A stretch of DNA of 63,042 nucleotides, filler included, from Stramenopiles sp. TOSAG23-2 (taxonomy: Eukaryota): assembly GCA_900128395.1 (NCBI GenBank). It is 54 parts of 54 records of this genome, joined end to end, with 100 filler letters (N's around TTAATTAATTAA, not from the genome) between each part and the next. Parts side by side here need not be neighbours in the genome. Positions count along the whole stretch, not along the records: positions 27,013 to 28,084 come from LT653831.1; positions 28,185 to 29,256 come from LT653832.1; 52 more parts are not named here. One strand, written 5' to 3'. This document shows positions 27,013 to 58,401 of this stretch, piece by piece. Under the pieces are notes generated by a model. The model saw only the letters and a program-made list of their open reading frames with translations, searched no databases and was not told where the DNA came from. The translations under genes were made by a program, and so were the position numbers. The stretch's first letter is position 1, and each line of letters begins with the position of its first letter.

Positions 27013-27582
27013 CATGTTACGAATGAAGATGTAGATTTTGATGATGGTGATAATTATAATAGTAAAGAGATGAATAACGTTAAAAAGAAGAAAGATACTT
27101 TTTACCAACGATATAATGATCATAACGACGTTGCTGATGAAGTAAATTCTAAACGTATTTTGAAATTAAATAATGACGTACGTAATGTAAATGGTGAACG
27201 TGTTTCAAACGATGTTCTTCATTTGGATGAGAAGAATGTTGTATTTGATAATCGAATCAATATTGGAAATGGTAAGGGACGTGATTTGGAGGAAAGAAGA
27301 CTTAGGAATGATATTGGTCGATCGTTGGTAAGTGAATGGAATGAGGATTTAACATCTGGAACGTATATATTGTTACATGATGTGAAAATAACAGATACTG
27401 TTAAGGTTGAGGATGGTACATTGGACATTACTGGTATTGTTGGTGGCGATGGTAAACGACCAGCAATTGATGGTGGTGGTACCCCAGGCTGTAAAAGCAA
27501 TTGTCCTGGTTATAGAGTATTTGTTGTTGACCGTTCTGATCCCAAATTGATATTAACAAATTTGACGATCAAGAACGGCTGG
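27013..27582 (+). CDS. Exon encoding the start of a right-handed beta-helix (Pmp/pectin-lyase-like) domain, preceded by an RRL putative processing site
   Basis: LDITG....RPAIDGGG...YRVFVV...KLILTNLTIKNGW ends exactly at a phase-0 donor TGG|GTATGT. Confidence 0.75.
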
Positions 27583-27704
27583 GTATGTAGATATATATAT
27601 ATATTTCACTTTCAGATCATTTTTCAATAATGGTTTTCTTTATGTATCAAAGCAATTACTAACTGTTTCAATTATGTTATATTATGTTGTGAAAAAACGT
27701 GTAG

Positions 27705-27707
27705 GTT
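27705..27707 (+). CDS. 3-nt microexon (GTT, Val)
   Basis: acgtgtAG|GTT|GTAAGT; branch point TACTAAC at 27657. Confidence 0.65.
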
Positions 27708-27802
27708 GTAAGTAATTTTCAATACTGGTTATCTGTTTTCTTTACGTTTCAAACCAATTACTAACTGTTTCAATTATGTTATGTTATGAAAATCACGTGT
27801 AG

Positions 27803-27805
27803 AAT
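27803..27805 (+). CDS. 3-nt microexon (AAT, Asn)
   Basis: acgtgtAG|AAT|GTAAGT; branch point TACTAAC at 27759. Confidence 0.65.
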
Positions 27806-27905
27806 GTAAGTAGATTTCAATATTGATTGTCTGTTTTCTTTTATGTATCAATGCAATTACTAACGGCTTCAATTATGTTATGTTATGTTGTGAAAAAACG
27901 TGTAG

Positions 27906-27908
27906 GCT
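27906..27908 (+). CDS. 3-nt microexon (GCT, Ala)
   Basis: acgtgtAG|GCT|GTAAGT; branch point TACTAAC at 27858. Confidence 0.65.
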
Positions 27909-28008
27909 GTAAGTAGTTTTCAATACTTGTTGTCTATTTTCTTTATGTATCAAACCAATTACTAACTGTTTCAATTATGTTATATTATGTTATGAAAATC
28001 ACGTGTAG

Positions 28009-28011
28009 TAT
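28009..28011 (+). CDS. 3-nt microexon (TAT, Tyr)
   Basis: acgtgtAG|TAT|GTAAGT; branch point TACTAAC at 27960. Confidence 0.65.
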
Positions 28012-28611
28012 GTAAGTAGTTTTCAATATTGATTGTCTGTTTTCTTTTACGTATCAAACCAATTACTAACTGTTTCAATTATGTNNNNNNNNNNNNNNNN
28101 NNNNNNNNNNNNNNNNNNNNNNNNNNNNTTAATTAATTAANNNNNNNNNNNNNNNNNNNNNNNNNNNNNNNNNNNNNNNNNNNNGGTTGAACCGGAACGA
28201 GAATGTAATGAGAATGACATTTTCTTTTGGATTGATATATTATATATATATATACGAGTATGTATGTATCTCTATCTTGATACGAAATTATACAAAACGA
28301 TATATCTATATGCCTGTTTATATCTCTATAATATCTCTCTATCTTTTATAGGATATCTTTACTTTTGTATTGTGTTGTTTCTTCTTTCACTTTGTATTAA
28401 TATTGAAGGGTATATGTAAGAATAGCGTACTAATAGGTGCATATAAGCACATAAGCTGATTGATGATCTTTGAAAAAAAATAACTGTCACATTCTTTGAA
28501 ATGATGAAAAATATGAATTCATATAAGTACGCTATTTAGAATACACGTACCTCCTAGCAAAGACCTGAATTAATATAGGCCCCTGAACTTATAACACCCT
28601 TAAATTAAAAT

Positions 28612-28812
28612 TGGTTCAAAAAGGTGGTCCACAGTATTCACCTGCTATATATGGAATAGCATACAAGATAGACATATTTAGAATATATTATAGTATTATA
28701 TTAGTATATAAAAAGTACGCTTAATAAATGTAATATAGTAATACCATTGCAATGCTATGTAGTGTATATACCACTATAGCAGGGGAATACTGTGGACCAC
28801 CTTTTTGAACCA
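28612..28812. mobile_element. MITE-like 201-bp element with 38-bp inverted repeats
   Basis: tggttcaaaaaggtggtccacagtattc(a)cctgctata at 28612-28649; reverse complement at 28775-28812 with 1 mismatch. Confidence 0.7.
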
Positions 28813-32912: not shown

Positions 32913-33937
32913 ATGGGGCAAATTATTGATCGTGCATCGTCGCCATTGTTTCTAACAAATACGCAGAAAAAAGTGGAAGAGATTACACAAAATTGGACAG
33001 TAGAAACTATTGTTAGTGCTGCAAATGTTGCTAAGGTTAAATATTTCAATACTAGAAGAAACTATTCTTTAACCTTTGATGAGTTTATAACATTGCCATT
33101 TTTATTTTTGTACAGGCAACCAACCAATGAGAGTGAATCCATAGACAATTTAGAGCGCGTATGGGCTTTATTTGTTAATGGTGGTTTTGAAGATGATGAA
33201 ATTGATGAAGATACTGGTGAGATTATTTATCCAACATCTTGGAACAATGTACATATAGATGGTTTACAATTTTTTTCATCCATTTTATGGGTCTTACCAC
33301 GAAGAAGCGATGATCGCGATAAGCTTTTTGCAACATTCACTTTATTTGATTTTTCAAATCGTCAACAGCTAAGCGAAATTGAAGTAATTACATTGTTATC
33401 TTGTTGCTTAAGCGGGTTGCATATATTTACAGAAGGTTTTGTTTTATTGCCACGCGTTGATCACTTACAATTTATAGTCCAACATATTTTTGAAAATGTA
33501 AAAAAAGAATCATACTCCTCGTCCATAGATAAACATAATAATAAGAAAAAACAAACAAAACGTAACGCTACAACTCGTATTGATTATCCTTTGTTCGTTC
33601 AATATTATGATGAGATGGAACAAACATCTATAGATGCTCTCCTCTTAGCTGATGTTAAGTCCAACATATTTTTGAAAATGTAAAAAAAGAATCATACTCC
33701 TCGTCCATAGATAAACATAATAATAAGAAAAAACAAACAAAACGTAACGCTACAACTCGTATTGATTATCCTTTGTTCGTTCAATATTATGATGAGATGG
33801 AACAAACATCTATAGATGCTCTCCTCTTAGCTGATGTTATTCGAAAAACGCGTGAGCCGGGCGGGATGAAAGGTTCAGATAAATGGCAAGGAACACGAGA
33901 TTCATGGATGGAATCCTTTTTGTTTTCATCAATTGAG
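32913..33937 (+). CDS. EF-hand (calcineurin-B/NCS-like) protein, interrupted by a 182-bp tandem duplication
   Basis: MGQ start (possible myristoylation); DKLFATFTLFDFSNRQQLSEIEV EF-hand. Removing one repeat copy restores the frame. Confidence 0.65.
33476..33839. repeat. Exact 182-bp tandem duplication
   Basis: 33476-33657 = 33658-33839. Confidence 0.95.
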
Positions 33938-57730: not shown

Positions 57731-58401
57731 TACAATAATACTATTGATGTACAAAGTATTGGTGAAGGATTAAAAGCAAACAATACATTAACGAAATTTT
57801 ACCTAGAGAATAATAATATTACTGATGTACAAAGTATTGGTGATGGATTAAAAACAAACAATACATTAACGAAATTGTACCTAGATAATAATAATATTAC
57901 TGATGTACAAAGTATTGGTGATGGATTAAAAGCAAACAATACATTAAAGTACTTGTACCTACATCGTAATAATATTACTGATGTACAAAGTATTGGTGAA
58001 GCATTAAAAACAAACAATACATTAACGAAATTGTACCTACATCGTAATAATATTACTGATGTACAAAGTATTGGTGAAGGATTAAAAACTAACAATACAT
58101 TAACGAAATTGTACCTACATCGTAATAATATTACTGATGTACAAAGTATTGGTGAAGGATTAAAAACTAACAATACATTAACGAAATTGTACCTACATCG
58201 TAATAATATTACTGATGTACAAAGTATTGGTGAAGGATTAAAAACTAACAATACATTAACGAAATTGTACCTACATCGTAATAATATTACTGATGTACAA
58301 AGTATTGGTGAAGGATTAAAAACTAACAATACATTAACGAAATTGTACCTACATCGTAATAATATTACTGATGTACAAAGTATTGGTGAAGGATTAAAAA
58401 C
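57731..58401 (+). CDS. RI-like/NLRC3-type leucine-rich repeat region built from 78-bp (26-aa) tandem units
   Basis: (NNITDVQSIGEGLKTNNTLTKLYLxx) x ~8.5; the later units are identical at DNA level. Confidence 0.9.

Follow-up and report, generated by a model that had tools for sequence, protein, structure and literature searches.

Introners, or introner-like elements, are families of near-identical short introns. The microexon genes (MEGs) of Schistosoma carry runs of small symmetric exons, encode secreted or surface proteins and undergo fast non-synonymous change, and the locus described here is like them in these respects, as far as the available text of the sources goes (PMC4015677, PMC4350168). 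The ROCO-LRR and NB-ARC-TPR genes of Ectocarpus use one 72-nt exon per solenoid repeat, and the accessible part of their description reports intra- and intergenic recombination together with diversifying selection on these candidate receptors, to which the present family offers parallels (Zambounis et al., PMC3341825). In tandem genomic duplication, an exonic segment containing AGGT is duplicated and new splice sites are created, and the table in the available part of that source leaves out simple duplications of introns that already exist (Yenerall and Zhou, 2012; PMC3443670). The neural microexons of vertebrates are described, in the portion of the source at hand, as having an extended region from branchpoint to 3' splice site (PMC12871342). 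No description of single-codon exon arrays was found in the literature searched, in which subscription papers were thinly covered.

The window, meaning the whole stretch of DNA analyzed here (63,042 nucleotides from Stramenopiles sp. TOSAG23-2), consists of 54 contigs of approximately 1.07 kb each with N-linkers between them, and the finding lies on one of these, G000:C5126 (27013–28084). The contig begins with an open 5' coding exon (exon 1, 27013–27582, plus strand) of 190 amino acids, the start of which is off the contig and the end of which is in phase 0; it encodes part of a beta-helix, Cys-rich, multi-pass membrane protein and stops within the first beta-helix coil (...LTIKNGW). A tandem array with a monomer of approximately 102 bp and an excess of similarity at two units (201–206 bp) occupies 27631–28084, and the introns and putative 3-nt exons of this region all lie on the plus strand. 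Intron 1 (27583–27704, 122 nt), which has a unique 5' part with a GTATGT donor, the repeat body, the branch point TACTAAC, and a type-A acceptor, leads to a putative exon GTT (Val; 27705–27707); intron 2 (27708–27802, 95 nt), with donor type CAATACT and a type-B acceptor, leads to putative AAT (Asn; 27803–27805); intron 3 (27806–27905, 100 nt), with donor type CAATATTGATT and a type-A acceptor, to putative GCT (Ala; 27906–27908); and intron 4 (27909–28008, 100 nt), a mosaic with donor type CAATACT, a type-B acceptor, and a middle like that of unit A1, to putative TAT (Tyr; 28009–28011). Intron 5 is partial (28012–28084), the contig ending past its branch point inside a 34-nt exact repeat, and the contig does not reach the rest of the gene downstream. 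All four triplets are flanked by AG and GTAAGT with TACTAAC 39–44 nt upstream; this branch point is present in every window intron, and no AG occurs from branch point to acceptor. Another contig, C2828, was considered as the direct continuation of C5126 and not accepted, the overlap being only 6 nt of low complexity. The sequence occurs in marine and aquatic runs.

Three further features were observed elsewhere in the window. The neighboring contig has a MITE-like inverted repeat (28612–28812) with arms of 38 nt that are 97% complementary and enclose 125 nt; a stretch of 182 nt is present in two exact copies at 33476–33839, which may be an amplification or an assembly artefact; and a 78-nt coding repeat, which we take to be LRR-like, occurs in 8.6 copies at 96% identity (57734–58401).

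The end of exon 1 has 13 matching places in the genome. Proteins of intronless relatives have a signal-like N-terminus along with beta-helix coils, Cys-rich repeats of the Pfam type Ephrin_rec_like, and a multi-pass membrane region; among Pfam families, Ephrin_rec_like was above cut-off in C637, Chlam_PMP, TRP, and DUF7630 were below it, and the window's gene family gave no Pfam match to an LRR or TPR family. The AlphaFold model of the coil region of C1346, an intronless paralogue standing in for the window's product, has a pLDDT of 93.2 and consists of stacked three-strand coils, and its best Foldseek matches are beta-helices (Rhombotarget A, AlgE4, and Pel9A). The array site falls in this model at the turn between the N-x-A strand and the GGG strand, where intronless genes have 2–12 residues (one 13-residue value in the set is a mis-capture). 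This loop site is found in three states, being intronless, split by a single phase-0 intron (C4225 and L058), or occupied by an array of triplets. Among 107 homologous proteins, the exon-end motif is present in 68, of which 64 continue into GT at the same place. C4225 (L055) also has two beta-helix start domains in tandem, with single phase-0 introns at the loop site.

The tandem pattern AG-NNN-GTRAGT is concentrated in this family, whose contigs hold 45 of 48 and 39 of 39 genome matches (reversed-pattern controls gave 22 and 2). After 10 coil-exon tails had been dropped from 101 candidates, the census counted 91 microexons, 81 on nine contigs of the genome and 10 in five metagenome loci, with sizes of 3 nt (89), 6 nt (one), and 9 nt (one) and no stop codon in any of them. 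Most arrays have 2–12 codons, whereas that of C637 has 17 and exceeds any intronless loop seen (2–12 amino acids). The introns are alike within one gene, whereas those of different genes of the genome are 38–74% identical (shuffled control 42–54%); AG, GTRAGT, and CTAAC are nevertheless kept across these very different intron families. The last intron of an array has the donor half and branch point common to the others with a short tail, so that all introns of an array, including the one before the 69–72-nt coil exon, share these two elements. The median distance from branch point to acceptor is 71 nt before triplets (n = 95, with up to 10 mis-calls) and 24.5 nt before coil exons (n = 14). The window's own repeat unit occurs on at least two contigs, C5126 and C2828, among the matches listed, with a weak match on C778; its intron motif was absent from the viral contig and genome contig collections searched, and Rfam gave no match in the window array. 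In the viral contigs, the sole match to the generic array pattern (L107) is a tandem repeat with an invariant triplet and was set aside as chance.

Several members of the family depart from the regular form. C778 (L004:5204–6151) has diverged introns, exons of 9, 3, 3, and 6 nt, and one GTCAGT donor, and may show what the arrays were like at an older or earlier stage. Damaged units and junctions are present in C6755 and C116. In C1505 (L049:5195–5735) and C6755, foreign sequence lies within array units, with the branch point replaced in some; these inserts would be explained by chimera or decay. In C116 (L065), blocks of a coil exon plus a triplet are repeated nearly exactly, and after two of the coil exons comes a GTATGT donor with a shortened 5' part.

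Within the window array, acceptor, donor, and codon markers alternate between types A and B throughout introns 1–5, each where the first-pass annotation had placed it. The acceptor ends are GTGAAAAAACGTGTAG in introns 1 and 3 (27689 and 27890) and ATGAAAATCACGTGTAG in introns 2 and 4 (27786 and 27992), while the donor-side markers are CAATACT in introns 2 and 4 (27720 and 27921) and CAATATTGATTGTCTG in introns 3 and 5 (27818 and 28024); the two codons of each like pair do differ, as that annotation said, by one non-synonymous change. TRF favors a period of 201 (90% matches, score 747) over one of 102 (84%, score 658), and codon-centred units are 89% (A1–A2) and 90% (B1–B2) identical, against 82, 78, and 84% for neighbors. 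The alternation had been read as the organizing rule of the array, which on that view grew by repeated duplication of a fixed two-intron cassette of approximately 200 bp. The pattern is imperfect, however. Units A1 and B2 are 88% identical, which goes against a clean dimer, and three columns, which the first-pass annotation had not mentioned, conflict with the split, TAC/TAT grouping introns 2 and 5, AAAC/AAAG grouping 2, 4, and 5, and TTATA/TTATG grouping 1 and 4. A strict count gives three supporting and six conflicting columns, although three of the six conflict through the diverged part of intron 1 alone and fit the A/B split for introns 2–5. The predicted odd and even clustering appears in the tree insofar as introns 2 and 4 separate from 1, 3, and 5, but its support is just 65/78. 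The four-gamete test, applied to biallelic columns across the ten introns that C5126 and C2828 have together, finds 28 of 66 pairs incompatible.

It is improbable that the alternation arose by chance or through misassembly of near-identical units. Tests of the odd and even split gave p from 0.08 to 0.40 overall, with permutation p = 0.133 for the five introns and p = 0.083 for the four codon-centred units, a value below which four units cannot fall, so that the test has little power and alternation beyond chance is not demonstrable from C5126 alone; furthermore, the contig breaks within the repeat and related contigs have chimeric-looking junctions. On the other hand, the longest exact repeat within the window array is only 36 nt, which makes a wrong order through assembly unlikely, and the donor, acceptor, and codon markers alternate in phase. 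One local duplication or conversion event of two units (approximately 200 bp) probably shaped the four window units, and the alternation is likely the trace of this single two-unit step, partly overwritten later.

As a general rule of growth, the fixed two-intron cassette is largely refuted by the sister arrays and is considered unlikely. A local two-unit repeat does recur in C637 (offsets 2, 2, and −2). In contrast, lag-2 periodicity was absent from C2828, which has the same intron family as the window and five triplets followed by a coil exon (p = 0.42 and 0.55), from the 17-unit array of C637 (p = 0.23), and from two arrays of C1505, with 11 and 8 units tested (p = 0.15 and 0.41; 11 of 12 units were taken into the loop-2 test). 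The first acceptor is of the ATG form in all six informative relatives, against GTG in the window, as read from translation, in which alleles and close paralogues are indistinguishable. Run X19 has an unspliced 250-nt contig in which two consecutive units are B-like, one with ATT where the window array has TAT (28009–28011). In the longer arrays, nearest-neighbor units lie at offsets of 1 to 13 units, and in C1505 and C116 the repeated blocks include the coil exon. The metagenome locus L064 (1177–1578) joins a C1505-type exon 1 and intron 1 to a window-type intron (83–86% identity), a mixed structure that points to paralogues having exchanged array units. On the simplest reading, the array consists of monomer units recombining at many offsets, and the window records one two-unit event. 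The alternation is itself a minor recombination trace in arrays that turn over. Of the dimeric unequal crossover first proposed, the two-unit step is retained and the dimer as the unit is not; "intron gain by tandem duplication" is the wrong label for either, since existing introns were copied rather than an exonic AGGT segment of the kind described in the available text on that process (PMC3443670).

Diversifying selection on the triplets had also been suggested. The window by itself gives a hint of it that falls short of significance, since the comparison of like units finds differences at two of six codon sites and at 17 of 240 intron sites (p = 0.06–0.07), whereas the larger arrays have a clear excess of divergence. 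Diversity at codon positions 1, 2, and 3 is 0.78, 0.10, and 0 in C637 (20 units; intron mean 0.034), 0.56, 0.69, and 0.21 in C1505 (19 of 25 units; intron mean 0.085), and 0.71, 0.71, and 0 in the window together with C2828 (seven of nine units; intron mean 0.082), a contrast inflated by the constraint and homogenization of the intron columns; C2981, with three units, was too small and was left out. Position 1 exceeds every intron column in all three sets, none of 148, 107, and 99 columns, respectively, reaching its diversity, and position 2 exceeds all intron columns in two of three. No variation is seen at position 3 in C637 or in the window with C2828, and little in C1505; since the same base is position −1 of the donor, this constancy may come from splicing and not from the site being silent. 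The minimum numbers of changes at positions 1, 2, and 3 are 11, 9, and 3 among 71 codons (not independent events), and only three of 540 differing codon pairs, which are likewise not independent, are synonymous. At the first microexon, each of five public relatives has a triplet set that excludes those of the other four, all NNT, as deduced from protein read-through, and Gly, Asn, Ala, Tyr, Ser, and Asp account for 65 of 79 microexon residues. Across the larger arrays, the triplets have diverged more than the introns.

A mutational origin of this diversity, with a process (local hypermutation, or conversion templated by a donor pool) aimed at the triplets in place of selection on ordinary mutations, is highly improbable. 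It would account for units of C637 that are nearest neighbors at an intron distance of 0–0.007 and nonetheless have different codons, as well as for the limitation of change to two bases. It fits less well with the sparing of position 3 and the flanks, which is as expected from selection on the amino acid, and searches turned up no template, inverted repeat, or RNA family in support of it; hypervariable residues also occur in exon 1, which is ordinary coding sequence. In the alignment of 13 close sequences over 27440–27560 of exon 1, a few columns near C-x-x-x-C and VF have 5–7 residues while their neighbors are fixed, and these variable columns may form a second hypervariable surface.

Four of six RNA runs, from four studies, were searched at 80% likeness. 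Pieces of exon 1 were found in the RNA libraries of all four studies; no joint across any intron, including the donor at 27582/27583, was found in these four runs, in which coverage consisted of exon 1 pieces, and the sole RNA-library contig inside the array is unspliced. A 36-nt piece of run X16 matches at 27582–27617 but is flanked by unrelated sequence, and the match was put down to chance. The homologues listed by the protein searches and the cluster members listed (at most 15 per cluster) included no recognizable spliced product. Such results would suit an intronic minisatellite whose triplets are never translated and whose exon 1 joins the coil exon directly, as would the broken units of some arrays. 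That explanation is nevertheless very unlikely, given that it leaves unexplained why all 91 spacers have lengths divisible by three and hold no stops, why AG, GTRAGT, and CTAAC persist across intron families of 38–74% identity, and why change is concentrated at codon positions 1 and 2. A further argument comes from the intronless paralogue C1544, whose first 220 nt are 100% identical to exon 1 and whose loop, followed by a 72-nt coil, has NNT at eight of eight codons, as expected of a reverse-transcribed mRNA, against 42 of 90 in control loops (p = 0.003; 10 of the control codons are mis-captured and non-loop). P0017 has the same exon end followed by an intron, and C1544 fits intron loss through an mRNA copy, though it may instead be an old intronless form. 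After one coil, C1544 (L056:613–2220, minus strand) switches abruptly to unrelated sequence, possibly at a chimeric or fusion junction. From the conserved frame and from C1544, the triplets would be spliced and translated. A system of hypervariable single-codon exon arrays in receptor loops is unusual, and for this gene it is supported across samples.

All exons are symmetric and in phase 0, so alternative inclusion is possible, any donor joining any later acceptor in frame to produce combinatorial loops. This would supplement the translated array rather than replace it, and we hold it as a tentative possibility: the 17 codons of C637 are more than the longest intronless loop (2–12 amino acids), and schistosome MEGs vary through exon skipping according to the available part of their description (PMC4015677). 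Most arrays, at 2–12 codons, nonetheless match the intronless loop range with all units included; the splice signals are of full consensus and the branch points distant, which favors inclusion; and the four RNA runs gave no supporting contig. Alternative inclusion is unneeded, except perhaps for the 17-codon array.

The evidence on loops, introns, and codons is best combined in a reading that we regard as probable, namely, that an array of phase-0 single-codon exons supplies a variable beta-helix loop, recombines at any offset, and diversifies its codons. The array that starts in the window would supply a loop, variable in sequence, that links two coils of a right-handed beta-helix, the protein being by prediction a surface receptor. 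The repeat unit of the array is a monomer, made up of a long acceptor tail, one codon, and the donor half of the next intron. Because every intron of an array has this donor half and the branch point in common with the others, units could be added, removed, or swapped at any offset through unequal crossover or gene conversion, in steps of one, two, or three units or of a block with the coil exon, and every such step would alter the loop by whole codons while the frame is kept. Within a gene, the introns would be homogenized while codon positions 1 and 2 diversify, most likely via selection for new binding surfaces, and position 3 would retain the founder's pyrimidine, by which stop codons would also be excluded. 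The observations establish the architecture, the family census, the mosaic units, the hypervariable triplets, and the beta-helix fold of an intronless paralogue; that the triplets are spliced and translated, that unequal crossover is the mechanism, that selection is the cause, and that the loops bind ligands are inferred.

If the triplets are translated, duplication of an intron plus a codon amounts to in-frame insertions, deletions, and swaps of single residues at the loops of a surface protein. This would be a compact route to evolving binding surfaces and a form of exon shuffling at its smallest unit, and it makes two matters testable: how a spliceosome handles up to 17 successive three-base exons, and whether protists have diversified receptor repertoires. 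A broader proposal holds that a free-living marine protist builds a hypervariable repertoire of receptor loops, residue by residue, from one-codon cassettes that undergo both recombination, inside a gene or from gene to gene, and combinatorial splicing, C1544 being a reverse-transcribed snapshot of one product; it is doubtful as a whole, and, if true, it would describe a residue-level diversification system without a described counterpart.

Compared with the known systems, the arrays differ from each in a definable way. Unlike the window unit, which is tandem and bound to its gene, introners are dispersed over unrelated genes. The process of tandem genomic duplication is similar in that a DNA duplication raises the number of introns, and L064 suggests a transfer of intron units between paralogues that is akin to intron transfer, as both are set out in the available text (PMC3443670); the units here, however, copy whole introns with donor, branch point, and acceptor, and each gain adds a codon. 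The vertebrate neural microexons share the long distance from branch point to acceptor before very short exons, but the accessible part of their description presents them as single, conserved, and regulated, whereas those of this family are arrayed and hypervariable (PMC12871342). Against the Schistosoma MEGs, in which microexons form most of the coding sequence, the exons here are single codons set in defined beta-helix loops and make up approximately 1.3% of the coding sequence in C637; the introns within a gene are near-identical, and exon skipping of the MEG kind is a possibility here, no contig in the four RNA runs crossing the array. With the Ectocarpus receptors, the family shares a coil exon of 69–72 nt per repeat and intra- and intergenic recombination, represented by the repeated blocks of C1505 and C116 and by L064. 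As far as the available description allows the comparison, it is distinct from them in that its coil exons vary comparatively little and what varies is a loop split into one-codon exons (PMC3341825); moreover, its members are membrane proteins with a beta-helix fold and no LRR or TPR domain, and no inverted spare exons were seen. The arrays work in the manner of repeat receptors that duplicate exon-intron units and are closest to the LRR exon shuffling of Ectocarpus and to the schistosome MEGs, while being a member of neither.
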